Source: Nannocystaceae bacterium ST9 (GTDB taxonomy: Bacteria; Myxococcota_A; Polyangia; Nannocystales; Nannocystaceae). From it: a stretch of DNA of 64,000 nt. A program made the translations under genes and the position numbers. Position 1 is the first letter of the stretch; each line of letters opens with the position of its first letter. The notes beneath the pieces are model-generated. The model was given only the letters and a program-made list of their open reading frames with translations. It ran no database searches and had not been told where the DNA came from. Location: NCBI GenBank assembly GCA_048320885.1, contig JBLWFJ010000001.1:5825697-5889696 (forward strand), written 5' to 3'. Shown piece by piece: positions 11,277 through 59,989 of this stretch.

Positions 11277-11642
11277 TCAGGTCTTCGCACGCTGATCGTG
11301 CCGGACCTCGATGATCGTGTGGATTCCGCCCCGAACCAGGAAGTCGCCCTCGACGACCATCCAGCGCGGATCGGTCGCGGCGACCAGATCATCGAGGATC
11401 TGGTTGGTGACCGCCTCGTGGAACGCCCCCTGATCGCGGTAGGTCCACAGGTAGAGCTTGAGCGCCTTGAGCTCGACGCAGCGCTGATCGGGGCAGTAGC
11501 GGATCCGAATGGTCGCGAAGTCCGGCTGGCCCGTGAGCGGGCACAGGCAGGTGAACTCCGGGCACTCGAAGCGGATCTCGAAGTCCCGCTCGGGCCTGGG
11601 GTTGGGGAAGGTCTCGAGCGCTCGGGAAGGCTGGGTCGCCAC
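11277..11642 (-). CDS. queF: NADPH-dependent 7-cyano-7-deazaguanine (preQ0) reductase QueF, type I
   Basis: [24 protein letters not shown]...ELKALKLYL motifs; 121 aa. Confidence 0.85.
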
Positions 11643-11805: not shown

Positions 11806-14800
11806 ATGAGCATCTCACCTCCCTCTCCGGTCGATCGCCTGCATCCGGTGCTCTTCGAGCTGTGGCTCCCCAACGGGCCGAACATCACCTGGCAGGTGGT
11901 GCGCCTGCACGGGATCGAGGCCCTCTCGACGCCCTACGAGTTCGTGCTCGATCTGATCACCGACGATCCCTTGGCCAGCTACGAGGAGATGCTCGGGGCT
12001 GACGCCGAGCTGCTGCTCGATCGCAACGGCGTGGTGCGGGTCGTCTACGGGATCATCGACGAGGTCCAGGCGGTGATGTCGGCCGAGTCGCGGGTCGCGA
12101 GCGCGGGGCTGGTCGTGCGCGCGCGGATCGTTCCGGCGTTCAAGCTGCTCGATCAGCAGCTCGACACCCGCTTCTTCGCCGGCCAGACCGTGGTCGAGAT
12201 CGTCCGCGATGTCCTGACCGCCGCGCTCGAGCCCTACCAGCGGACGATCGACGCGAGCGCGAGCGTCAAGGGCACCTACGCCAAGCGCGACTACTGCGTG
12301 CAGTTCCGCGAGACGACCTTCGCGTTCTGCAGCCGGATCCTCGAGGAAGAGGGCATCAGCTACCAGTTCGTCAACGACGACGACGAGCACAAGGAGAAGC
12401 TGGTCCTGATCGACAGCAACGCGGATTACCGCGAGGTCGAGCTGCTGGTCGCCGACGCGATCCCGATCGTGCTCAGCCGGCCCGACGAGCTCGACCGCGA
12501 GTCGATCCAGGCGTTCGACTGGCGAGACGCGCGGACGCCCAACCGCGTGCTGACCCGCGGCTACAACTTCAAGGTCGCGACCACGCCCGACGAGGGCAGC
12601 GCGGAGCGGACCGACCCGCACAACCCCGGCACCCGCGAGCAGTTCCTCGACGACGATCGCCGGCAGATCGTCGACGATCCGATCAACGATCCCGAGGCCC
12701 AGAGCTTCACCGGGGCCGACCTCGCCCAGCGCGTGCCGCTGGCCGAGCGGCTGCTGCAACTGCACACCCAGGAGTCGGCGATCGGCCAGGGCCGGGCCAA
12801 CGCGATCGGGTTCGGGCCCGGCCGGACCTTCACGCTCGGCGAGCACCCGCAGGCCTCGCTCGATCACCACCGCTTCTTGCTGACGCGGGTGGTCCACGAG
12901 GGCGCGATCGGGGGCAGCTCGGGCTCGCCCGAGCGCTCGTACGCCAACCGCTTCGACTGCGTCCCGGTCGAGCACGAGCATCGCCCGGCGCTGCGGACCG
13001 CCAAGCCGCGCGTGTACGGGATCCAGACCGGCGTGGTCGTCGGTCGGGCGCAAGACGAGATCTACACCGATCAATTCGGGCGGATTCGGGTCAAGTTCCA
13101 CCGCGATCGCCACAGCGGCAACGACGAGCAGGCCTCGTGCTGGATCCGCGTCGCCCAGGTCTGGGCCGGCTCGGGGTTCGGCGCGGTCGTGATCCCGCGG
13201 GTCGGCATGGAGGTCGTGGTGTCGTTCGTCGACGGCAACCCCGACTGCCCGCTGGTGACCGGCTGCGTCTACGACAGCCAGAACATGCCGCCCTATCCGC
13301 TGCCGGCGGAGATGACCAAGACCACGTTCAAGACCGCGTCGAGCCCGGGCGGCGAGGGGTTCAACGAGCTGCGCTTCGAGGACGCGCACGGGTCCGAGCA
13401 GGTGTTCATCCATGCCCAGCGGCGGATGGACGTGCGGGTCCGCGGCAGCCTCTACGAGACCTGCGGAGGCAGCCGCGAGGAGCGAGTCGGCTGGGAGCGC
13501 GGCGACGATCAGGGCGGCGACCACAACACGCTGGTCCACAAGGACGTCAACCATCACGTCAAGGAGATCCGCTACACCAAGGTCGAGAAGGAGCAGTACG
13601 AGACGGTCATGCTCGACCTGATCGAGGACTTCCAGACCAAGCACATGGTTCTGGTCGGCGAGGTCAGCCAGCTCAGCGCGCCCAAGGTCGTGGTCGAGGC
13701 CAGCGACAAGATCAGCCACAAGGCCGGGGCGATCCTGGTGACCGGCAGCTCGACGGTCGACATCAAGGGCGGCGGCAAGGTCGCGATCGAGAGCAACAAC
13801 GCGATCGAGATGAAGGTCGGCGGCAGCTTCATCTCGATCACGCCGGGCGGGATCGCGATCCAGGGCGTGTCGGTCCGGATCAACAGCGGCGGCGGGGTCG
13901 GTCCGGCCAGCGAGGGCGAGGCCGCGGTCTCGGTCGAGATGCTCGATCCGCTCGACGCGCTCGGGGCCGACGACGGCCAGATCCATCACGGTGGCGGCGG
14001 GGGTGGGGGAGGCGGCCGGACCCGCACGGGTCGCACGCTCGATCCTCATCACGCGCCGCCGATGCAGCCCCCGCCTCCGCCTCCGCCGGGCCACCCGACG
14101 GTCCAGCCCGACGGGACGCTGCGGCAGTTCCTGACCATCGAGTGGGTCGAGGTCGAGACCTGGTGCAGCGAGCCGGCGACCCTGCGCGGGACCACCCAGG
14201 GCTACACCGACGGCGACACCGAGTCGGCCGACGTCCGCAACACCAGCGACGGCGCGGTCCAGCGCGCGCAGACCCTGACGATCACCAGCAACGCGTACAG
14301 CCAGGCGTTCGACGTGGTCAACCTGCTGCCGCGCCGGGTCGGGGCCAACTTCGAGACCGAGCGGACGCTCGACGCGATCGCGGTCGGCCAGACCACGCCG
14401 ACGGCGATCCGCCTGCGCTTCATCCCGACCCTGACCTCGACCCACTGCACGATCAACAGCTCGCACTTCGACCTCTCGGTGACCAACTACGAGGCGCTGA
14501 TGGGCGGGACGATCAACTACGTGCCGGGGTGGATCCAGTTCATCATTCAGCTCGGCGCGACCGTGCCGGCCGGCACCGGCGGCAACTGTGGGGTCAACTT
14601 CGGGACCCCGACCGCCGGCAGCTTCAGCGGGACCGACTGGCGCTACGCCAAGCGCAGCACGACCACCGGCGGGCTGCTCTACTGGAACGGGACCGCGTGG
14701 ACGGCCGTGCCGGCGACCTGGTCGGATCCGGCCAACGTGCTGCTCTACCCGATCGCGATCTGGATCGAGGGCGGCACCAACCACACGCAGTTCGGGACCA

Positions 14801-15324
14801 CGGCCTGGCCCGAGGCGATCCCGGCCTGGGGCGCGACCGAGACCACGCTCGCGACCACCACGCTGGCGACCTGGACGACCAACATCAACGCGACTTGGAC
14901 TGGCAAGTTCGACCTCAAGCGGGTCGAGTGCCGAAGCACCGACGCGCAGTGCTGCCGCTACAAGACTCGCTGCAGCGTGACCTTCGTGCAGGTCGCGGTG
15001 AAGGGCAGCGGCATCGTGCTCGCGGCCAACAACGCCCGCTCGAACGCCGGCGTCTGGTCGCTCGGCGACACCCGGGCCGGCATGCCGCCGCACGAGTTCG
15101 GCCACCACCTCGGCAACCCCGACGAGTATGCCGGCGGCGTCGGCATCGACGCGAGCGTCAACACCGACGGCGCGACCGCGGGCATCGACCCCAACTCGAT
15201 CATGGGCGCCAACCTGAGCACTGTGAAGCGACGCCACTACAACACGATCTGCAAGCACCTGGCCGCGATGGTCAGCACGCAGTTCGGCCGGACCTACACC
15301 TACAACGCCGTGCCGGTCGTCTGA
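11806..15324 (+). CDS. vgrG: Type VI secretion spike protein VgrG (TssI) with glycine/proline-rich linker and C-terminal HExxH zinc-metallopeptidase-like effector domain (an evolved VgrG)
   Basis: The gp27/gp5 core is unmistakable: RVAQVWAGSGFGAVVIPRVGMEVVVSFVDGNPDCPLVTGCVYDSQNMPPYPLPAEMTKTTFKTASSPGGEGFNELRFEDAHGSEQVFIHAQRRMD. A beta-helix repeat region (ISHKAGAILVTGSSTVDIKGGGKVAIESNNAIEMKVGGSFISITPGGIAIQG) follows, then a G9/P8 linker. The C-terminal ~430 aa extension ends ...GMPPHEFGHHLGNPDEY...IDPNSIMGANL, i.e. HExxHxxGxxD followed by a Met-turn-like SIMG. Confidence 0.9.
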   Translation: MSISPPSPVDRLHPVLFELWLPNGPNITWQVVRLHGIEALSTPYEFVLDLITDDPLASYEEMLGADAELLLDRNGVVRVVYGIIDEVQAVMSAESRVASAGLVVRARIVPAFKLLDQQLDTRFFAGQTVVEIVRDVLTAALEPYQRTIDASASVKGTYAKRDYCVQFRETTFAFCSRILEEEGISYQFVNDDDEHKEKLVLIDSNADYREVELLVADAIPIVLSRPDELDRESIQAFDWRDARTPNRVLTRGYNFKVATTPDEGSAERTDPHNPGTREQFLDDDRRQIVDDPINDPEAQSFTGADLAQRVPLAERLLQLHTQESAIGQGRANAIGFGPGRTFTLGEHPQASLDHHRFLLTRVVHEGAIGGSSGSPERSYANRFDCVPVEHEHRPALRTAKPRVYGIQTGVVVGRAQDEIYTDQFGRIRVKFHRDRHSGNDEQASCWIRVAQVWAGSGFGAVVIPRVGMEVVVSFVDGNPDCPLVTGCVYDSQNMPPYPLPAEMTKTTFKTASSPGGEGFNELRFEDAHGSEQVFIHAQRRMDVRVRGSLYETCGGSREERVGWERGDDQGGDHNTLVHKDVNHHVKEIRYTKVEKEQYETVMLDLIEDFQTKHMVLVGEVSQLSAPKVVVEASDKISHKAGAILVTGSSTVDIKGGGKVAIESNNAIEMKVGGSFISITPGGIAIQGVSVRINSGGGVGPASEGEAAVSVEMLDPLDALGADDGQIHHGGGGGGGGGRTRTGRTLDPHHAPPMQPPPPPPPGHPTVQPDGTLRQFLTIEWVEVETWCSEPATLRGTTQGYTDGDTESADVRNTSDGAVQRAQTLTITSNAYSQAFDVVNLLPRRVGANFETERTLDAIAVGQTTPTAIRLRFIPTLTSTHCTINSSHFDLSVTNYEALMGGTINYVPGWIQFIIQLGATVPAGTGGNCGVNFGTPTAGSFSGTDWRYAKRSTTTGGLLYWNGTAWTAVPATWSDPANVLLYPIAIWIEGGTNHTQFGTTAWPEAIPAWGATETTLATTTLATWTTNINATWTGKFDLKRVECRSTDAQCCRYKTRCSVTFVQVAVKGSGIVLAANNARSNAGVWSLGDTRAGMPPHEFGHHLGNPDEYAGGVGIDASVNTDGATAGIDPNSIMGANLSTVKRRHYNTICKHLAAMVSTQFGRTYTYNAVPVV

Positions 15325-24341: not shown

Positions 24342-24417
24342 GGGCGGAATATGGGAATCGAACCCACCACCTCCTGAACCACAATCAGGCGCTCTAACCA
24401 AATGAGCTAATTCCGCC
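24342..24417 (-). tRNA. tRNA-His (anticodon GTG) with encoded G-1
   Basis: Reverse complement folds as G(-1)+GCGGAAT/ATTCCGC acceptor, D-arm GCTC-ATTTGGTTA-GAGC, anticodon arm CCTGA-TTGTGGT-TCAGG (GUG), T-arm GGTGG? region ...GGGTTCGATTCCC, discriminator C. The extra 5' G pairing with C73 is the tRNA-His hallmark. No CCA is encoded. Confidence 0.85.
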
Positions 24418-30235: not shown

Positions 30236-31399
30236 GTGGTAGAAAGTGGCGTGGCCCGAGTCTCGGGGCTTTCTCAGCGGCAGGAGCGCATTTTGATCGG
30301 GCTGTGTCGGCAGCACGCGATCGAAGGCCGACCCGTCGCTTCGGGGACCCTGTGTCGGGCGCTCGGCCTCGACTGCTCGCCGGCCACGATCCGCAGCGAG
30401 CTCGCGGCGCTCGAGCGCTCCGGCTTGGTTCACAAGCCGCACGCCGCGAGCGGGCGGGTGCCGACCAGCGAAGGTTGGCGGATCTACATCGACGCGCTCC
30501 CTCGCCACGCCGCGCGACCCGAGCATCAGCGCCTGCTCGACCTGATCCGCCCGGGCAGCAGCGGCCCCGATCCTCGCCAGGGGCTGCGCTCGACCGCGCG
30601 CGTGCTGTCCGAGCTGGCCGGCTGCGTGGCGATCAACTTCGTCGGCGAGGCCCGCCCCGGCGTGGTTCGAGCGCTCGAGCTGGTGCCCCTGGCCGAGGGT
30701 CGCAGCGGCGGCAAGGACGAAGGCGCGCGCGCGCTCGTGATGCTCGGGCTCGAAGACGGAGCAAGCAGCGTGCGAACGGTCGACATCGATCGCGACGTGC
30801 TCGAGCGCGACCCCCAGCTGCATCGGATCCAGAGCCTGCTGCGCGAGCTGACCTGCGGGCGCAGCCTCGAGCAGGCCCGCGAGCAGCTGCGCGAGTTGCT
30901 CGGCGCGCAGGAGGCCCGCGTCGATCACTACCTCGCCGAGGCCCTGCGGATCGGGCTGCTGCTCTGCGTGGCGTCGTTCGATCCGCTGTGGATGCAGGTC
31001 GCGGGGCAGGGCGCGCTCGCTCGCGACGTCGGGCGCGAAGGAGCGTCGGGTGATCCGACGACCCTGGGCGGGCTGCTCGAGCTGCTCGACGACTACCAGC
31101 GGCTGGCCGAGGTGCTCTGCCAGCTCTTGCCCGAGCCCGACGACGCCCCGCAGGCCGCGGTCCACCTCGATCTGACCGGGACCCGGGCCGAGCTCGCGAG
31201 CGCGCCCGCGTCGGGGTTGCTCGGATCGACCAGCGGCGGGTTGACGCTGGTCGGATGCCGCCTACGTTGGCCGGCGGTGCGCGACCCCAACATGCGGACG
31301 ACCGGCGCCGTGGCGCTGCTCGGCAGCCCGCGGATGGATTGGGAGGCCGTGATTCCTCTGGTAGAGTACGCCGCGCGAGCGATGCTCGCCCGCGGCTGA
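30236..31399 (+). CDS. hrcA: Heat-inducible transcription repressor HrcA
   Basis: N-terminal wHTH (LSQRQERILIGLCRQHAIEGRPVASGTLCRALGLDCSPATIRSELAALERSGLVHKPHAASGRVPTSEGWRIY), length and position upstream of grpE-dnaK-dnaJ. Confidence 0.8.
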   Translation: MVESGVARVSGLSQRQERILIGLCRQHAIEGRPVASGTLCRALGLDCSPATIRSELAALERSGLVHKPHAASGRVPTSEGWRIYIDALPRHAARPEHQRLLDLIRPGSSGPDPRQGLRSTARVLSELAGCVAINFVGEARPGVVRALELVPLAEGRSGGKDEGARALVMLGLEDGASSVRTVDIDRDVLERDPQLHRIQSLLRELTCGRSLEQAREQLRELLGAQEARVDHYLAEALRIGLLLCVASFDPLWMQVAGQGALARDVGREGASGDPTTLGGLLELLDDYQRLAEVLCQLLPEPDDAPQAAVHLDLTGTRAELASAPASGLLGSTSGGLTLVGCRLRWPAVRDPNMRTTGAVALLGSPRMDWEAVIPLVEYAARAMLARG

Positions 31400-31485
31400 G
31401 TCAGCCCGAGTGGGCCCGCCTGGGCCAGCGGTCGCGCGCAGATCGACGATCGATCGGCGAGCAGCATCAGGAGCCCGACGACTTC

Positions 31486-32157
31486 ATGAGCGGAGACCAG
31501 ACCACGAACGACCCCAAGCCCGCCGACGACGTGCTCGCGCAGGCCATGCGCGACGCGGAGCAAGCGGTCGAGCGGGTCCGAGCCGGGCGCGACGGCGAAG
31601 CCGAAGAGTCCGACATCGACATCACCGACGACCCCGACGCGGCCGATCTCGTCGCCGCGCTCGCGGCGGATCTCGCCGCCGCCAAGGCCGACATCGAGGC
31701 CATGCGCGACAAGTGGATGCGCTCGCTGGCCGACCTCGAGAACTTCAAGAAGCGGACCCGCCGAGAGATCGACGAGGCCGTCCATCGGGCGCTCGGCAAC
31801 ATGCTGAGCGACTTCCTGCCGGTCGGCGACAACCTCGAGCGCGCGCTCGCGGCCATGCCGGCCAACACCGAGCCGCAGCTGGCCAAGGGGCTCGAGATGG
31901 TCCGCGGCGAGTTCTTCTCGGCGCTCGGCCGGCACGGGATCAAGCCGATCAACTCGGTCGGCATGGTCTTCGATCCCAACCTCCACGACGCGCTCCAGCA
32001 GGTCGACACCCCCGACTTCGCGCCCGGCGTGGTCGTGATGGAGTACGAGAAGGGCTACCTGCGAGGCGAGCGGCTGCTGCGGGCGGCGCGAGTGATCGTC
32101 GCGGGTCCCGGCTCGACCGGCACGCCGCCCGACTCGAACCCGGGCGAGGCCAACTGA
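31486..32157 (+). CDS. grpE: Nucleotide exchange factor GrpE
   Basis: ATG 31486 ([11 protein letters not shown]), internal to track ORF 31255..32157. ...[19 protein letters not shown]... coiled coil and C-terminal beta domain [23 protein letters not shown]. Confidence 0.85.
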
Positions 32158-32170
32158 TCGGAGCGCGCTG

Positions 32171-33994
<1,824 letters not shown>

Positions 33995-55288: not shown

Positions 55289-56305
55289 TCACGAGAGCGT
55301 GGTCTTGCGGGCCTTGGCGCTGGCGCGCAGCCGCGACTCGCGGACGACGTCGCCGCGCGTGGCCTCGGGATCGATCCCGCGGCCGCGGCACTTGTCGGCG
55401 AAGCGCGGGTCGTCGTCGTCGATCGCCAGGCTGAGCTGGTAGCAGTCGGCCAGGCGAAAGCTGCCCAGGCCCTCGTGGGCGTGGTCGGACAGAGTCTCGA
55501 AGCGCTGCAAGCCCGCGCGCAGGGCCAGCGATCGCGCGCCCGCGAGCTCGGGGATCGCCACGCGAGCGACCTCGTGCTCGCCCTCCACACCGGTCCCGCG
55601 CAGCAGCCCGGGCTCGTGCGCCAGCCAGCTCAGGCCGTGACGCAGCGGCAACAGCACGATCTGCTCGGGCAGGCCGTACTCGCGCAGCACTCGGGCGGGG
55701 CGAAAGGGCGGCTGGATCTCGCCGGGCTCGCGCGGCGCCGCGGTCGAGGTGAGCAGCTCGTCGAAGGGCACGAACTCGATCCCGGCCGGCTCGTGGCGAT
55801 CGTCGAGCGTCACGACCTCGAGCGCGCCGAGGTGGGTGAGCGAGGCGCTGATCGTTCGACCCTGGAAGTCGGAGTAGGGGATGGCGTCGCCCTCCGGCGG
55901 GCCGTCGCCCAACCACGCGAACGCATGGCGGGGGCGGTAGGGCGAGCGGCGAGCGAGCAGCTGCTTGGCGCTCGCCAGCACGCGATCGCGAGCCGCCGCG
56001 TCGGCCTCGCTCGAGTCGCCCGAGGGCCGCTCGCCGGCCGGGGCCAGCAGCGCGCGTCGCAGCCGACCTTCGTCGGCGTCGAGCCAGGCCAGGCAGCGCA
56101 GGTGATGGAGGCGCAGCCGCTCGGCCCAGCTCGGCTCGGCGCGAGTCTCGAGCTCGCGCAGCTCGTCGGGGTTCGACTGCCAGTAGGCCTTCTGCAGGGC
56201 GATCGCTCGGGCGCTGATCGGATCGAGCCCGGCGAGCTGGGGCCCGCGCGAATAGTCGCGGGCCGCGGCCTTGCTGCCGAACAAGCGATCGAAGAGCCGC
56301 CGCAC
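55289..56305 (-). CDS. Hypothetical protein (338 aa)
   Basis: Clean ORF co-directional between HNH and ureohydrolase genes. Arg/Leu-rich helical N-terminus; no motif recognised. Confidence 0.4.
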   Translation of the reverse strand: MRRLFDRLFGSKAAARDYSRGPQLAGLDPISARAIALQKAYWQSNPDELRELETRAEPSWAERLRLHHLRCLAWLDADEGRLRRALLAPAGERPSGDSSEADAAARDRVLASAKQLLARRSPYRPRHAFAWLGDGPPEGDAIPYSDFQGRTISASLTHLGALEVVTLDDRHEPAGIEFVPFDELLTSTAAPREPGEIQPPFRPARVLREYGLPEQIVLLPLRHGLSWLAHEPGLLRGTGVEGEHEVARVAIPELAGARSLALRAGLQRFETLSDHAHEGLGSFRLADCYQLSLAIDDDDPRFADKCRGRGIDPEATRGDVVRESRLRASAKARKTTLS

Positions 56306-56381
56306 GCCTGGACGCTACCAGCAGGCCCGCCAAAGGCGAAGCCCCGCGCTCGGGCGAGCGCGGGGCTTCGGATGGGTGGTT

Positions 56382-56783
56382 TCAGCGATCGGCCAGCCAG
56401 AGCAGCAGCGAGCTGTCGCTCTTGCTGCGGTTGCAAGGACCGCACGCCGGGACCAGGTTCTCGCGTGGACCACCGCCGCGCGAGCGCGGGATCAGGTGGT
56501 CGCGCGTGCGCGATTGCTTGGTCAGTCGGGCGTTGCAGTACACGCACAGGACCGGCTCGACGTTCCAGACGAAGTAGCTGTACTCGCTCGCGAACACGGG
56601 ATCGAGCTGACCCGCGACGGTGTCCTCGATCGTCAGCTGCTTGTGCCGCGCGATCTCGCGGAAGCGGGCGATTCGTCCGCCGCGGCGGCCATCCTTGCGG
56701 ATCTGCCGCTTGTACAGATACCACTGAGCCGTGCCGCGCTCGGGCAGCCCGAACGCGGCGTTGCGTGAGTATGGGTCGGTCAT
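56382..56783 (-). CDS. HNH endonuclease (133 aa) immediately downstream of the tRNA array
   Basis: ATG 56783 (MTDPYSRN...), internal to track ORF 56382..56936. CVYCNARLT...DHLIPRSRGG...NLVPACGPCNRSK is a classical HNH/zinc-ribbon motif. Confidence 0.8.
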   Translation of the reverse strand: MTDPYSRNAAFGLPERGTAQWYLYKRQIRKDGRRGGRIARFREIARHKQLTIEDTVAGQLDPVFASEYSYFVWNVEPVLCVYCNARLTKQSRTRDHLIPRSRGGGPRENLVPACGPCNRSKSDSSLLLWLADR

Positions 56784-56840
56784 CGCATCCTCCCTTCGCC
56801 AATGGCCGAAGGAACTCGTGACGACGCGGATGGATGCGAG

Positions 56841-56912
56841 AGGTGCAGACAGGATTCGAACCTGCATCGACGTGGACTGCAGCCACGCGCCTCGCCCTTC
56901 GGCCACTGCACC
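56841..56912 (-). tRNA. tRNA-Cys (GCA)
   Basis: Reverse complement gives GGTGCAG-TG-...-CGTGG CTGCAGT CCACG-...-GCAGG TTCGAAT CCTGT-CTGCACC-U73. U33, R37, anticodon GCA. No CCA encoded. Confidence 0.8.
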
Positions 56913-56939
56913 AAGAGGACGCGCCTCGCGGCGCATCGA

Positions 56940-57007
56940 CAGGAGGCGAGGGGATCGAACCCTCCCAGTCCGGACTTGGAAACCAGACCCCGCCCAGCGG
57001 GCCCCCT
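56940..57007 (-). pseudogene. tRNA-like element with an intact acceptor stem and T-arm but a non-canonical, shortened body (probable pseudo-tRNA or unusual structured RNA)
   Basis: AGGGGGC pairs with GCCTCCT (one G-U). T-arm GAGGG-TTCGATC-CCCTC, discriminator G. The body between them is only 36 nt, and no anticodon stem-loop can be drawn. Confidence 0.4.
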
Positions 57008-57093
57008 GAAACTCGACATTCTTCTACGTCATCGGTCGACATCGTCGCATGATTGAATCTCGGAGATCGAAGGTGAACTGTCACGGTGAAGAG

Positions 57094-57166
57094 TGGACCG
57101 CGTCGGACTCGAACCGACAGCCTTCCGGGTGCAAACCGGGAGCTCCCCCAATTGAGCTAGCAGCCC
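57094..57166 (-). tRNA. tRNA-Ala (TGC)
   Basis: GGGCTGC-TA-GCTC AATTGGGG GAGC-T-CCCGG TTTGCAC CCGGA-AGGCT-GTCGG TTCGAGT CCGAC-GCGGTCC-A73. Carries the G3:U70 alanine identity pair. Confidence 0.85.
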
Positions 57167-57170
57167 AGAG

Positions 57171-57243
57171 AGTGTGTGATGGGAATCGAACCCACTACCT
57201 CGACATTGGAAGTGTCGCGCTCGTCCAGTCGAGCCTCACACAC
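57171..57243 (-). tRNA. tRNA-Gly (TCC), atypical (GTGTGTG/CACACAC acceptor stem, A8)
   Basis: GTGTGTG-AG-GCTC GACTGGAC GAGC-G-CGACA CTTCCAA TGTCG-AGGTA-GTGGG TTCGATT CCCAT-CACACAC-U73. Canonical anticodon loop (U33, A37), but position 8 is A. Only 4 nt separate it from the tRNA-Ala 5' end. Confidence 0.65.
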
Positions 57244-57276
57244 GAATCGGAAAAATGGCAATGTGAATTCGAAGAG

Positions 57277-57348
57277 AGTGAGTGGCGGGAATCGAACCCG
57301 CGACCTTCGCATTGGCGGCGCGACGCTCTACTACTGAGCTACACTCAC
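57277..57348 (-). tRNA. tRNA-Gly (GCC)-like, non-canonical (C33; D-loop lacks G18-G19)
   Basis: GTGAGTG-TA-GCTC AGTAGTA GAGC-G-TCGCG CCGCCAA TGCGA-AGGTC-GCGGG TTCGATT CCCGC-CACTCAC-U73. Perfect cloverleaf pairing, but the anticodon loop is CCGCCAA (C at 33) and the D-loop is AGTAGTA with no GG. Confidence 0.55.
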
Positions 57349-57364
57349 ATGAATGAATCGAAGA

Positions 57365-57452
57365 CGGAGAGAGGGAGGGTCGAACTCCCAAGGGAACGAG
57401 TCCCGACCGGGTTCAAAGCGGTTGCCGTCGCCAACTGTCGGCATGTCTCTCC
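57365..57452 (-). tRNA. Class II tRNA-Ser (TGA)-like, atypical (3 nt between acceptor and D-stem; C31-C39 mismatch)
   Basis: GGAGAGA-CAT-GCCG ACAGTTGGCGA CGGC-A-ACCGC TTTGAAC CCGGT-CGGGACTCGTTCCCTT (long variable arm, GGGA/TCCC stem)-GGGAG TTCGACC CTCCC-TCTCTCC-G73. Confidence 0.55.
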
Positions 57453-57477
57453 AGAGTATCGGGAATTTGGCGGTGAG

Positions 57478-57565
57478 CGGAGAGGAGGAGGGTCGAACTC
57501 CCAAGGGCACGAGTCCCGGCCGCTTTCGAAGCGGTTACCGTCGCCAGCTGTCGGCTAGCCTCTCC
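57478..57565 (-). tRNA. Class II tRNA-Ser (CGA)-like, atypical (3 nt between acceptor and D-stem)
   Basis: GGAGAGG-CTA-GCCG ACAGCTGGCGA CGGT-A-ACCGC TTCGAAA GCGGC-CGGGACTCGTGCCCTT-GGGAG TTCGACC CTCCT-CCTCTCC-G73. Near-duplicate of the previous gene with a different anticodon. Confidence 0.55.
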
Positions 57566-57713
57566 AAATGTACGAACTGATTGTCGAAAAATCCGCAATG
57601 CTTCGAATCCTCGATATTTTGGACGCCCCCGAGACCACGAGCGAGCGAACGCGAAGCGAGCAGGCCCGGAGGGCTTGCGAGGAGGAGGACCCGTGACGGC
57701 TCCGCCGGCACGG

Positions 57714-57737
57714 GGGAGGGCGGCGGAACGCCCTCCC
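57714..57737. other. 9-bp GC-rich hairpin (GGGAGGGCG gcggaa CGCCCTCCC) inside the tRNA array; candidate processing signal or terminator
   Basis: Seen directly. Flanked by imperfect direct repeats AGCGAGCGAA(C)GCGA(A)GCGAGC at 57639-57661 and 57749-57766. Confidence 0.4.
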
Positions 57738-57763
57738 TAAAGACGAGTAGCGAGCGAAGCGAG

Positions 57764-57848
57764 CGGAATGAAGAGGAATCGAACCTCTGCTGGGCATTGC
57801 CAGTCCTCCGCATTCCAAGCGGGAGCCTTGCCATTCGGCCATCATTCC
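57764..57848 (-). tRNA. tRNA-Ser (GGA), class II
   Basis: GGAATGA-TG-GCC GAATGGCAA GGC-T-CCCGC TTGGAAT GCGGA-GGACTGGCAATGCCCAGC-AGAGG TTCGATT CCTCT-TCATTCC-G73. Has U8, U33, A37. Confidence 0.75.
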
Positions 57849-57870
57849 GAGGATGTCGCGTCGGTTCCGG

Positions 57871-57952
57871 CGGAAGGTGAGGGAATCGAACCCCCGAACG
57901 CAGATGCGTCGCGCCTTAGCAGAGCGCTGCCTTACCACTCGGCCAACCTTCC
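57871..57952 (-). tRNA. tRNA-Ser (GCT), class II, canonical
   Basis: GGAAGGT-TG-GCC GAGTGGTAA GGC-A-GCGCT CTGCTAA GGCGC-GACGCATCTGCGTTC-GGGGG TTCGATT CCCTC-ACCTTCC-G73. Confidence 0.85.
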
Positions 57953-58414
57953 ATTCGTTCGGACAGCGCCTCGAGAGGCGGGTCGGAACCGACGCGAAGG
58001 GGCTACGCGGAGCGCCAGGATCGGCAGGAATGACTCGATCGCCCGGCCGACCATCCCCGACTCGAACAACCCGAACCCTCGGCGGCACCACGAATCGTGA
58101 GCGCGGGGAACAACAGGTCGGTCGCAACGTGGATTTGCAGAGTCGCCATGACGAACACCTCGATACGTCGACAAGATACACGATACATCGGAGCGGTCAA
58201 GCATTGCGACACGATTTTTTCATCGAATGTGGATGCGAACGACGACGAGCGACGACGAGGACGGTAGCCACCGAGGTGGCTGGAGGAGGCGCCGTCAAAC
58301 GGGTTGGCGCGCAGTCGTGAGCCTGCCAACGCCGTTCGGTGCGGCGCTGAGCCCGATCGACCGAAATCACTGGGCTTTTTGCTCGGTCGCGCGCTTGCTC
58401 TGGCGTCTCGGTGC

Positions 58415-59989
58415 ATGACCACGCCGAAGCTCGCCTCGCCCTCGCTCCGTGCTCCGACCCTGCTCGCGCTCGCCTTCGGGCTGGCTGCCTGCAACTCCCA
58501 CCCGATCAAGCCGGTCGAGGTCACGGGCAACTCGGTCCCGCTCGAGGCCCTCCCGCTCGACGTGAATCGCAAGGTCGACGTGCTGCTGGTGCTCGACAAC
58601 TCGGGTTCGATGGGCGAGGAGCAGGCCAACCTCGCGGCCAACTTCGGGCCCTTCATCGAGCGACTCGAGCAGGTCGGGGCCGACTATCGAATCGGCATCG
58701 TCACCACCGATCTCGGCGGACCCAATTGCCCCTCGACGCCCAACGGCGGCGAGCTCCAGGCCAGCTCCTGCCTCGATCGCCCGGCCGACTTCGTGTTCGG
58801 CCAGACCGACGTGTTCGAGGTCGCGTGCAGCGAGCAGTGCTCGCTCGGCGACGCCGATCTGACCTTGCGGCCGACCCAGGTGGCGGGCAGCGACGAAGCG
58901 GCGGTCCGGCCCTGGATCGAGAGCGCCAACGGGGTCAGCAATCTGCCCGAGGGCGTCGATCCACTGACCGCGTTTCAGTGTCTGGCGCCGCAGGGCATCT
59001 CGGGCTGCGGCTGGGAGTCGCCGCTCGAGTCGATCGCCCGAGCGATCGACAACATGAACGACGAGAGCCGGCCCGAGTACGGGTTCTTGCGCGACGACGC
59101 GCTGCTGGCCGTGCTGGTCGTGACCGACGAGGTCGACTGTTCGTACCGGCCCGAGCACGAGGACGCGCTCTTCCTCTCGAACGCGTTTTGGGCCGATGGG
59201 GCCAGCTACGCGACCTCGGCGGTGTGCTGGAACGCGGGCGTGGCCTGCTCGGGCGACCCGCTCGACTGCCAGCCCGCCGACTTCGACGATCTCGGCCAGC
59301 CGACCGACGATCCGAGCGTGGCGGTACTGCATCCGATGTCGCGCTACCTCGATCTCCTGCAGGGGGTCGAGTCCGGCAAGCTCGGCGATCGCGACGTGCT
59401 GGTCTCGCTGATCGCCGGCGTGCCCGAGGGCTACCCCGAGGTCCCGCTGGTGTTCGCAGCCAGCGACGATCCCGACTTTCAGGAGCTGTTCGGGATCGGG
59501 GCCGGCTGCACGAGCGTGATCGGTGGCGTCGAGCAGACCGCGGTCCCGCCGGTCCGCTTGCGGGCCTTGGCCGAGGCGTTCCCGGTCGGCGATCGTGGCA
59601 TCTATTCGGTGTGCAGCGCCGACTACACGCCGGCGATCTCCGACATCGTCGAGGGCCTGACGATCGAGCTGCCGCCGGCCTGCTACGGCGCCTGCGTCCG
59701 CGACCTCGATCTCTCGACCGACGAGCTCGACTACAACTGCCAGGTCAGCCAGGCGATCGGCGAGGACAGCGAGGAGCTGCCCGAGTGCCTCGAGGGCGGC
59801 GAGCTGCCCGAGGGCGCCGACGCCTGCTGGATCCTGAAGTCGGGCGAGCAGGCGGCGCTCGAGTGTCAGGTCGTCGGTCAGAACGTCGAGTTCGAGCTGG
59901 TCCGCCGCTACGGGGTGGCGATCCCCGCGGGCGCGAACGTGGTCGCGGCCTGCGAGGTCTCGACGCTGCCGAGCATCGATTGCCCCTGA
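58415..59989 (+). CDS. Secreted VWA-domain lipoprotein, Cys-rich
   Basis: ATG 58415 (MTTPKLASPSLRAPTLLALAFGLAACNSH, lipobox), in frame inside track ORF 58304..59989. VWA MIDAS motif VDVLLVLDNSGSMGEEQ. ~24 Cys in the C-terminal half. Confidence 0.7.
   Translation: MTTPKLASPSLRAPTLLALAFGLAACNSHPIKPVEVTGNSVPLEALPLDVNRKVDVLLVLDNSGSMGEEQANLAANFGPFIERLEQVGADYRIGIVTTDLGGPNCPSTPNGGELQASSCLDRPADFVFGQTDVFEVACSEQCSLGDADLTLRPTQVAGSDEAAVRPWIESANGVSNLPEGVDPLTAFQCLAPQGISGCGWESPLESIARAIDNMNDESRPEYGFLRDDALLAVLVVTDEVDCSYRPEHEDALFLSNAFWADGASYATSAVCWNAGVACSGDPLDCQPADFDDLGQPTDDPSVAVLHPMSRYLDLLQGVESGKLGDRDVLVSLIAGVPEGYPEVPLVFAASDDPDFQELFGIGAGCTSVIGGVEQTAVPPVRLRALAEAFPVGDRGIYSVCSADYTPAISDIVEGLTIELPPACYGACVRDLDLSTDELDYNCQVSQAIGEDSEELPECLEGGELPEGADACWILKSGEQAALECQVVGQNVEFELVRRYGVAIPAGANVVAACEVSTLPSIDCP

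Follow-up and report, generated by a model that had tools for sequence, protein, structure and literature searches.

A short tRNA array with an attached HNH gene in Nannocystaceae bacterium ST9: indications of vertical inheritance and of partly phage-type tRNAs

Dense arrays of transfer RNA (tRNA) genes linked to an HNH endonuclease gene are a known motif of phages and of laterally spread arrays (PMC5966550, PMC8421152). The tRNA array unit, described from mycobacterial chromosomes and plasmids, comprises at least 20 tRNA genes at a density of at least two per kb (Tran et al. 2016; PMC5966550). L-arrays are scattered in distribution, spread horizontally, carry supernumerary isodecoders and have a neighbouring, co-regulated HNH gene (PMC8421152). 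The trn operon of Anabaena is such an L-array, with the co-regulated HNH gene all8564 (PMC8421152), and is under the repressor TrcR (PMC10272220). A-arrays are small, accretive chromosomal tRNA operons (PMC8421152), and phage tRNA clusters may contain free-standing homing endonucleases, such as segB of T4 (PMC2330249). Here we describe nine tRNA genes followed by an HNH endonuclease-family gene in Nannocystaceae bacterium ST9 (contig JBLWFJ010000001.1); the window, i.e., the whole stretch of DNA analysed, was 64,000 nt long (positions 5,825,697 to 5,889,696 of the contig). The block is best described as a short chromosomal array of variant, partly phage-type tRNAs that has been inherited vertically. 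Our preferred interpretation, with a probability of roughly 0.55, is a supplementary set of tRNAs that serves translation in parallel to others; it would not hold the cell's only such genes and would be partly derived from phages or tRNA arrays.

All nine tRNA genes were on the minus strand, at 56840–57952. ARAGORN called eight of them within this interval at its default threshold and the ninth, Ser-UGA at 57363–57453, at a relaxed one, in agreement with an earlier sequence-only reading of this DNA that had counted nine minus-strand tRNA-type elements in about 1.1 kb. In minus-strand 5' to 3' order, and with the HNH gene at the end, the features were:

57869–57952, minus strand: tRNA-Ser(GCU), conventional type (ARAGORN; Rfam tRNA 56.2 bits)
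57763–57848, minus strand: tRNA-Ser(GGA), conventional type (ARAGORN; Rfam 51.6 bits)
57566–57762, minus strand: spacer of 197 nt with an AT-rich 3' part, ST9-specific (comparison with relatives)
57477–57565, minus strand: tRNA-Ser(CGA), type-O, with 3-nt connector, 4-bp D stem and 11-nt D loop (ARAGORN; covariation)
57363–57453, minus strand: tRNA-Ser(UGA), type-O, with a C31.C39 mismatch (relaxed ARAGORN only; 23 bits against Rfam tRNA-Sec)
57276–57348, minus strand: tRNA-Gly(GCC), with U2:A71 and U73 (ARAGORN; Rfam 68.1 bits)
57170–57243, minus strand: tRNA-Gly(UCC), with U2:A71 and U73 (ARAGORN; Rfam 52.9 bits)
57093–57166, minus strand: tRNA-Ala(UGC), G3:U70 and A73 kept, C27.A43 mismatch (ARAGORN; Rfam 54.6 bits)
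56938–57008, minus strand: tRNA-Trp(CCA), reduced D-arm CCGC-UGG-GCGG, U31.U39, A1:U72, G73, 68-nt core (ARAGORN; conservation)
56840–56912, minus strand: tRNA-Cys(GCA), U73, G37 in the loop CUGCAGU (ARAGORN; Rfam 55.3 bits)
56382–56783, minus strand: HNH endonuclease-family open reading frame (ORF), 133 aa plus stop, Shine-Dalgarno (SD) sequence GGGAGG (Pfam HNH, HNH_5)

Six of the nine tRNA genes reached the Rfam RF00005 gathering score of 29 bits, with 51.6–68.1 bits. Ser-CGA (57477–57565), Ser-UGA (here 57366–57452) and Trp fell below it and scored 21–24 bits against the tRNA-Sec model; all three were folded by ARAGORN, and their stems carried compensatory changes among relatives. Identity elements were retained (G3:U70 in Ala; U73 in Cys and Gly; G73 in Ser and Trp). 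None of the nine genes encoded a 3' CCA, which would therefore be added after processing. As the sequence-only reading had stated, the serine isoacceptor set was complete (GCU, GGA, CGA and UGA); Gly-CCC and Ala-GGC were not in the ST9 array, leaving the Gly and Ala sets incomplete. The element at 56938–57008, which that reading had counted but not named, is Trp-CCA, and the statement that every amino acid represented is small has to be given up. Packing was as tight as it had claimed, with a gap between Ala and Gly-UCC of 3 nt instead of the 4 nt reported.

With its nine genes spread over 1113 nt (8.1 per kb), the array is denser than the minimum of 2 per kb for a tRNA array unit, but holds fewer genes (9 in ST9 and 3–13 in relatives, against at least 20). 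It resembles L-arrays and tRNA array units in its dense, same-strand tRNA genes, its attached HNH gene and its non-standard isodecoders, and differs from L-arrays in covering five amino-acid types instead of nearly all twenty. With A-arrays it shares modest size, chromosomal location and local duplication, seen in the type-O Ser-CGA/UGA pair and in the two Gly-GCC genes of a relative (L226); unlike them, it includes phage-type and structurally non-canonical tRNAs and has a leader ORF on one side and a protein gene on the other.

Loci around homologues of the HNH protein were fetched from genomes, metagenomes and assemblies and scanned for tRNAs. The ST9 genes Ser-CGA and Ser-UGA belong to a type, here called type-O, in which the connector between the 7-bp acceptor stem and the 4-bp D stem is 3 nt long instead of 2 nt; the D loop has 11 nt and a GGCGA end, and the T arm, CUUGGGAGUUCGA, is invariant. 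Type-O Ser genes of relatives had the anticodons CGA, UGA, GGA and GCU, and within Nannocystaceae the lineage appears to have diversified to all four Ser anticodons. Over 15 sequences, 94.7% of cells in the type-O cloverleaf were paired, compared with 51–60% in slid controls, and 11 pairs had changed on both sides. Because of these compensatory pairs and of pairing above the slid controls, the type-O Ser genes are taken to be tRNAs under selection and not pseudogenes. Inspection ruled out an identity as allo-tRNA (8/4 or 9/3) or tRNA-Sec, because an eighth pair in the acceptor would have to be C.U or C.C, the T stem is 5 bp and the anticodons are those of Ser.

A BLAST search of the array against plasmids matched one element, a Ser-UGA of type-O architecture in the tRNA array of the Mycolicibacterium plasmid pCBMA213_1. 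This plasmid gene in turn had matches in 163 phage records, all covering most or the whole of it and 137 covering at least 80%; the records include Aeromonas phage 65, cyanophage S-PM2, phAPEC8-like coliphages, and Klebsiella, Vibrio and Streptomyces phages. Type-O Ser genes were found in the tRNA clusters of phAPEC8, Aeromonas phage 65 and Streptomyces phage Blueeyedbeauty, and an alignment of the Nannocystaceae, plasmid and phage genes had the 3-nt connector and the D loop in common. The ST9 type-O Ser-UGA itself matched a Vibrio phage tRNA-Ser at 76–77% identity. A comparable search with the conventional ST9 Ser-GGA gave no match in phages, and searches for phage relatives of the Cys, Gly-UCC and Trp array genes gave nothing informative. 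A covariance model (R1), trained on Nannocystaceae type-O Ser genes only, scored the plasmid Ser at 89.9 bits and the phage and IMG/VR Ser elements at 63–80 bits, compared with 35–45 bits for conventional Ser genes, including a second, conventional Ser gene in two of those phage or viral loci; ST9 Ser-CGA and Ser-UGA, both members of the training set, scored 99.6 and 100.7 bits. Because of this separation of scores and the phage and plasmid BLAST matches, part of the array belongs to a tRNA lineage that is characteristic of phages and of arrays spread laterally. The type-O Ser is thus found both in the ST9 array and in that of pCBMA213_1, a likeness to L-arrays and tRNA array units, and the ST9 locus resembles phage tRNA clusters in that each has type-O Ser and combines a tRNA cluster with a nuclease.

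Genes for tRNA-Ser(UGA) with the 3-nt connector were also located at L234:2501-2588 (S-PM2), L235:2501-2589 (phAPEC8), L237:2501-2592 (Aeromonas phage 65) and L141:6346-6436, the last of which default ARAGORN missed. Such genes occurred in many phage genomes and were unannotated in several of the records. Type-O tRNA-Ser is thus a widespread architecture that is often missed in phage genomes by standard annotation, with an effect on tRNA gene counts in phages.

The Trp, Cys and Gly genes of the array were also unusual. The Trp gene is 68 nt long and keeps A1:U72, G73 and the CCA anticodon, with its D-arm shrunk to a CCGC-UGG-GCGG hairpin. This reduced D-arm was kept in L007, L062, L226, L229, L008, L011 and L013, and its alignment had 95.9% of cells paired, compared with 42–59% in slid controls, and 2 compensatory pairs; the Trp genes of L020 and L075 had normal D-arms. 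The Cys anticodon loop, CUGCAGU, has a G at position 37, which is usually A in tRNAs reading U-starting codons. All Gly tRNAs of the arrays in ST9 and its relatives begin with GUG and have U2:A71, where bacterial tRNA-Gly normally has C2:G71, an identity element; in Nannocystis-type loci, C2:G71 is present in the single Gly-GCC beside the HNH gene. Both the D-arm-reduced tRNA-Trp and the G37 tRNA-Cys represent testable non-canonical bacterial tRNAs.

The three genes below the Rfam threshold could alternatively be pseudogenes in a partly decayed array. That Ser-UGA escaped ARAGORN at default settings would fit this, as would the mismatches C31.C39 in Ser-UGA, A27.C43 in Ser-CGA and U31.U39 in Trp. 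Yet the odd architectures were kept across genera with compensatory changes, the type-O architecture was also kept in many phages, and acceptor stems and discriminator bases were intact, and decay is considered very improbable.

The HNH protein had 27 homologues at 51–88% identity, and the named ones were from Myxococcales, Enhygromyxa or Nannocystaceae. The tRNA content directly upstream of the HNH gene (identity of the HNH protein to that of ST9 in brackets) was as follows:

L007 and L061 (88–89%): Ser-GCU, Ser-CGA, Ser-GGA, Gly-GCC, Gly-UCC, Ala-UGC, Ala-GGC, Trp, Cys
L226, L229 and L062 (82–83%): 9–11 genes in the same order
L008 (82%): only Ser-GCU, Trp and Cys
L011, Plesiocystis pacifica SIR-1 (65%): ten genes
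L013 and L065 (62%): seven genes
L020, a Polyangia metagenome-assembled genome (53%): thirteen genes
L075 (45%): Ala, Ala, Trp, Cys

The order of amino-acid types was constant across loci: Ser, Gly, Ala, Trp, Cys, then HNH. Searches with the flanking proteins (tblastn) recovered one common neighbourhood in ST9, L007, L008, P. pacifica and L013. It consisted of p260, two M16 peptidase genes and p561 on the opposite strand, the array, the HNH gene, sometimes a glutaminyl-tRNA synthetase gene, and p338, agmatinase, p417 and p278. The site of the array was constant, between the gene for p561, a lipoprotein with a MIDAS-like segment, and the HNH–agmatinase genes; p338 had no recognisable family. 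Because the same flanking genes recur in divergent lineages, the array is old, syntenic across genera and vertically inherited, and not a recent mobile island. L-arrays, scattered by horizontal transfer, differ in this from the ST9 array, whose synteny and vertical descent lie within one family.

The sequence-only reading had taken the array for a phage or laterally acquired island and the combination of a dense array with an HNH gene for a phage hallmark; in a recently acquired mobile island, the HNH protein would be an active homing endonuclease. HNH genes do accompany arrays in phages, mycobacteria and the Anabaena trn operon (PMC5966550, PMC8421152, PMC2330249), the type-O Ser is phage-type, and the guanine-plus-cytosine (GC) content at 56–58 kb (0.649) was slightly lower than that of the window (~70%). 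Such a dip is, however, what a group of nine tRNA genes with spacers should cause where the genome has 70% GC. Among the window ORFs, none near the array was an integrase, phage or plasmid gene, and searches of viral contigs, phages and plasmids found no orthologues. HNH orthologues were confined to Nannocystaceae chromosomes. The claim of a recently acquired island is contradicted by the identical site in ST9, three clades of metagenome-assembled genomes and P. pacifica, the insertion point being the same in four divergent lineages. We rate a recent mobile island as the least probable of the explanations considered. From the hallmark argument the known motif and the phage-type Ser stand, whereas mobility does not. 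Synteny, which the sequence-only reading had named as a sign against mobility if general, was found, but Enhygromyxa-type relatives had no tRNAs at the site. Unlike in phage tRNA clusters, the nuclease gene of ST9 is 3'-terminal and not interspersed, and there is no phage context or sign of mobility.

The HNH ORF begins 56 nt past tRNA-Cys on the same strand and matches Pfam HNH and HNH_5, confirming that an HNH gene lies directly downstream of the array. Its invariant residues were two CxxC zinc-finger pairs (four Cys), D95-H96 and N109; the N-terminal 75 residues are basic and were kept only within Nannocystaceae. Viral contigs, phages and plasmids matched the protein only over a core of ~50 residues, with no full-length relatives, and NCBIfam returned a generic IscB/Cas9-type HNH match to the core only. 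The AlphaFold model had a pLDDT (predicted local distance difference test) of 63.5, too weak for use. Each recovered Nannocystaceae relative had one syntenic copy, at 45–89% identity, with tRNAs present or not. Because it occurs as this single syntenic copy with or without tRNAs, the gene appears unlike an active homing endonuclease. It has the HNH catalytic motif in common with free-standing homing HNH enzymes, but is not sporadic, multi-copy or tied to mobile DNA, and in contrast to the HNH genes of L-arrays it is a lineage-specific orthologue also present without tRNAs. A domesticated homing endonuclease is possible. In Enhygromyxa-type loci (L001, L002/L012 and L010), HNH, p338 and, where the locus reaches, agmatinase were retained, and a promoter and an untranslated leader of ~150 nt preceded HNH, with no tRNAs there.

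Several minor observations concern the surroundings of the HNH gene. Its SD region (GGGAGGAUGCG; window 56784–56839) had a predicted pairing with the trailer CGCAUCC after tRNA-Cys (z -2.5), and a hairpin of different sequence abutted the SD in L011 and L020 (alignment read by eye); HNH translation might depend on tRNA 3' processing. The HNH leaders of two Enhygromyxa-type loci (L001:9840-10000 and L002:9020-9239) contained, by eye, the T-arm-like strings GGTTCGATCC and GAGTTCGAGC, which may be remnants of lost tRNA. Array-less genomes had defence-like genes upstream of the HNH orthologue: SIR2_2 with an AAA_23 ATPase, a few genes from HNH and on the opposite strand, at L001:144-5840 and L002:1136-6711, and McrBC directly upstream at L230:308-4115. 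At L005:25-10405, an array of Gly/Gly/Ala/Gly/Ala/Cys lay ~9.4 kb from the HNH gene, and the intervening DNA, with a Ser/Thr kinase, an XRE-type helix-turn-helix protein, a sigma factor and DUF4062, resembles an island inserted 3' of tRNA-Cys. In Nannocystis-type loci (L023:9591-10366, L071, L079 and L073), a conserved ORF of ~68 aa (MRTIHADITVRT...GDRVRL...MEVEA) preceded the HNH orthologue, and the pair of small ORF and nuclease resembles a toxin-antitoxin-style arrangement. One tRNA (Gly-GCC or Ser-CGA) lay upstream in these loci, with none called upstream in L073, and tRNA-Pro(CGG) followed HNH.

The reading as a supplementary set is preferred because most members of the array are variant isodecoders and two are phage-type tRNA-Ser. 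Supernumerary status is inferred from the turnover of content and from the conventional and variant pairs of L020. Compared with ST9, L008 lacks six internal genes, with only 77 nt left between Ser-GCU and Trp; the L007 array has no Ser-UGA and the ST9 array no Ala-GGC; and L226 has its second Gly-GCC gene. No genome can lose its sole Gly-GCC or Ser-UGA gene, and some of these genomes, at least, must therefore have further copies. Within one array, L020 combines a conventional with a variant copy for each of Trp, Cys and Ser-CGA. The array tRNAs of ST9 and P. pacifica differ by ~20–30% (counted by hand from the sequences), which is fast for sole-copy tRNAs.

Other points weigh against a supplementary set. 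By Rfam score, six of the nine genes are ordinary tRNAs. The Ser set is complete and the locus syntenic, as expected of a housekeeping operon. The P. pacifica array has type-O Ser genes only, with all four anticodons, and these could be its working set. The G37 and U2:A71 features are called unusual on general knowledge of tRNA identity, and tRNA-His is unusable as a rate control, the SspB loci of relatives carrying no tRNA-His. On these grounds the array could be an ordinary housekeeping tRNA operon, with the sole or main Ser, Gly, Trp and Cys genes and one of the Ala genes grouped by accretion; its oddities would be lineage quirks and HNH a neighbour read through by chance. Vertical inheritance across genera, the four Ser isoacceptors, six genes at 52–68 bits, the identity elements kept and the cloverleaves under selection all agree with such an operon, as do the exclusively type-O Ser genes of P. 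pacifica. Against it stand the six-gene block missing from the close relative L008; the absence of Ser-UGA from the L007 array and of Ala-GGC from that of ST9, implying copies elsewhere in some genomes; the L020 pairs; the membership of type-O Ser in a phage and plasmid-array family; the ~20–30% divergence, fast for sole copies on general knowledge; and the Enhygromyxa-type genomes that retain HNH and promoter without tRNAs there. A housekeeping operon is therefore a serious alternative, but a rather unlikely one.

A supplementary set would mean that an HNH-linked tRNA array can persist in a bacterial family for long periods while being remodelled, that such arrays can be limited to a defined subset of amino acids, and that tRNAs of phage type can settle as resident genes of the cell. 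Were the array the sole source instead, a bacterium decoding UGG by a D-arm-reduced tRNA would be notable in itself.

Upstream and downstream of the genes listed above, the following features were found:

58173–58200, minus strand: sigma-70-like promoter, TTGACC-16 nt-TATCTT, the sole promoter-like site in 56200–58450
58003–58149, minus strand: leader ORF, 48 codons plus stop, SD GAGGTG, conserved in position, MATLQIHVATDLLFPALTIRGAAEGSGCSSRGWSAGRSSHSCRSWRSA
57957–57989, minus strand: predicted stem-loop between leader ORF and first tRNA, a candidate attenuator or processing site (z -0.4, no U-tract)
56337–56370, minus strand: terminator-like 15-bp GC hairpin after HNH (-40.2 kcal/mol, z -5.15, 0/200 shuffles as stable)

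Because there is one promoter, no promoter-like site between and a strong hairpin after HNH, the array is probably transcribed as one unit of ~1.86 kb, from ~58166 to ~56337. Its order would be sigma-70-type promoter, translated leader ORF, nine tRNA genes, HNH gene and terminator. The primary transcript would be cut by the usual tRNA-processing enzymes, with the HNH mRNA as the 3' product. In the proposed history, the array would have originated at least partly in an anciently domesticated pool of phage- or array-type tRNAs, and its tRNA content would grow and shrink by local duplication and deletion in one branch of Nannocystaceae.

The -35 and -10 elements of the promoter were kept in L007, L226, L229 and L008, and a TTGxxx-17-TAxxxT element stood at the equivalent place before the L011, L013 and L020 arrays. 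About 23 nt downstream of the promoter, GAGGTG-N6-ATG was invariant in the ST9 clade, within which indels in the leader ORF were of 3 and 6 nt. The comparison covered every lineage with an available upstream region: SD-led ORFs of 45–63 codons were present at the same position in L007, L226, L229, L011 (read by hand), L013 and L020, and in L008 the ORF was shortened to 17 codons. The sequence-only reading had seen degenerate T-arm fragments at 57965–58090 and concluded that the array was once longer. This interval lies in and just past the conserved leader ORF, downstream of the conserved promoter, and gave no tRNA-like Rfam match at E<=1; decayed tRNA remnants upstream of the array were ruled out on this basis, and the longer array is unsupported. 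A hairpin of different sequence occupied the place of the ST9 stem-loop in L226, L229 and L020 (alignment read by eye). In L013, three to four tandem copies of GGGGCCATCCTG (L013:8890-8965, by eye) sit between leader ORF and first tRNA, where other lineages have a single stem-loop.

The sequence of the leader peptide was not conserved between lineages. Its composition was compared with a null of 769 spurious ATG-started ORFs of 40–70 aa from ~590 kb of Nannocystaceae DNA, in which the mean fraction of Ser+Gly+Ala+Cys+Trp was 0.39. The idea of enrichment arose after the peptides had been seen, and the five-residue set was preset by the tRNAs. The fractions and p values were:

ST9 leader: fraction 0.52; p 0.09 for the whole ORF, 0.004 for the last 25 residues
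L011 leader: fraction 0.63; p 0.004 for the whole ORF, 0.017 for the last 25 residues
L013 leader: fraction 0.46; p 0.23 for the whole ORF, 0.13 for the last 25 residues
L020 leader: fraction 0.62; p 0.007 for the whole ORF, 0.004 for the last 25 residues

Combined over the four lineages by Fisher's method (by hand), p was ~3e-4 for whole ORFs and ~4e-5 for the last 25 residues. Enrichment in Ser alone was not significant, as spurious ORFs were already 15% Ser. Remnants of tRNA do not explain the composition of the leader, because translated real tRNA sequence had a five-residue fraction of only 0.38. Third-position GC of the ST9 leader ORF was only ~69% (by count). A structured leader or riboswitch was rejected, the leader RNA being no more stable than shuffles (z +2.3), with nothing in Rfam, and predicted long-range pairing in the leader was without covariation.

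Leaders controlled by ribosome-mediated attenuation include trpL, hisL and pheM-pheST. The ST9 leader resembles them in its short SD-led ORF right after the promoter, its apparent enrichment in related codons and the stem-loop that follows. Unlike theirs, its downstream genes are tRNAs; runs of regulatory codons, a U-tract terminator and a demonstrable alternative pairing were not found, and the codon enrichment is only moderate. The leader ORF also sets the locus apart from the Anabaena L-array, which uses TrcR. A regulatory role of the leader peptide is a lead, not a finding. One tentative and on balance doubtful extension is a self-sensing operon of spare tRNAs, in which translation of the leader would report decoding capacity for the array's own codons and so gate the tRNAs and HNH. 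When that capacity drops, for example through tRNA-cleaving toxins or serine-family starvation, leader ribosomes would stall, and transcription would enter the altered, partly phage-derived tRNAs for five amino acids and the HNH gene. Our literature search found no report of leader-peptide control of tRNA operons, and none of myxobacterial tRNA arrays. If real, such an operon would be the first tRNA operon under leader-peptide control and the chromosomal equivalent of those phage tRNAs that evade anticodon nucleases; with the leader ORF, feedback control of tRNA supply becomes a specific and falsifiable idea.

The array might instead supply aminoacyl-tRNAs to a non-ribosomal, tRNA-dependent enzyme (Fem/MurM-type, MprF-like, cyclodipeptide synthase or PEARL), as the sequence-only reading had proposed from the small size of the amino acids. 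Trp removes that premise, and no Fem, MprF, cyclodipeptide synthase, LanB or L/F-transferase domain was found in the 43 window ORFs with Pfam and NCBIfam. Variant isodecoders for few amino acids do recall the non-proteinogenic tRNA-Gly that staphylococci use for FemXAB, Cys-, Trp- and Gly-tRNAs are PEARL substrates, and a small peptide ORF lies upstream of the array. The likeness to the staphylococcal tRNA-Gly lies in clustered variant isodecoders for small amino acids; the difference is that no Fem-type gene was found in the ST9 window and that Trp, Cys and a full set of Ser anticodons are included, the four Ser anticodons serving decoding and being needless for a transferase. The conserved neighbours, moreover, are the lipoprotein with the MIDAS-like segment, agmatinase and M16 peptidases, and the leader peptide is not conserved in sequence between lineages. 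Supply of a transferase is considered improbable, and a supplementary set for translation is preferred.

The genes surrounding the array were ordinary chromosomal genes, including an agmatinase-family gene, two M16 peptidases, HrcA-DnaK, Ser/Thr kinases, VgrG, QueF and an L,D-transpeptidase. The VgrG-type spike of a type VI secretion system (11806–15321), QueF (a preQ0 reductase of a tRNA-modification pathway, 11280–11642) and HrcA-DnaK (30236–33991) had no evident link to the array; another, unrelated tRNA-His was called at 24342 by ARAGORN. The 197-nt spacer had no further copies in the window or the fetched loci, and orthologous Ser spacers in L226 and L229 measured ~18–27 nt, against 197 nt in ST9. 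By eye, it contains GCTCGCTTCGC-like direct repeats near both ends, and its AT-rich 3' part might contain an internal promoter.

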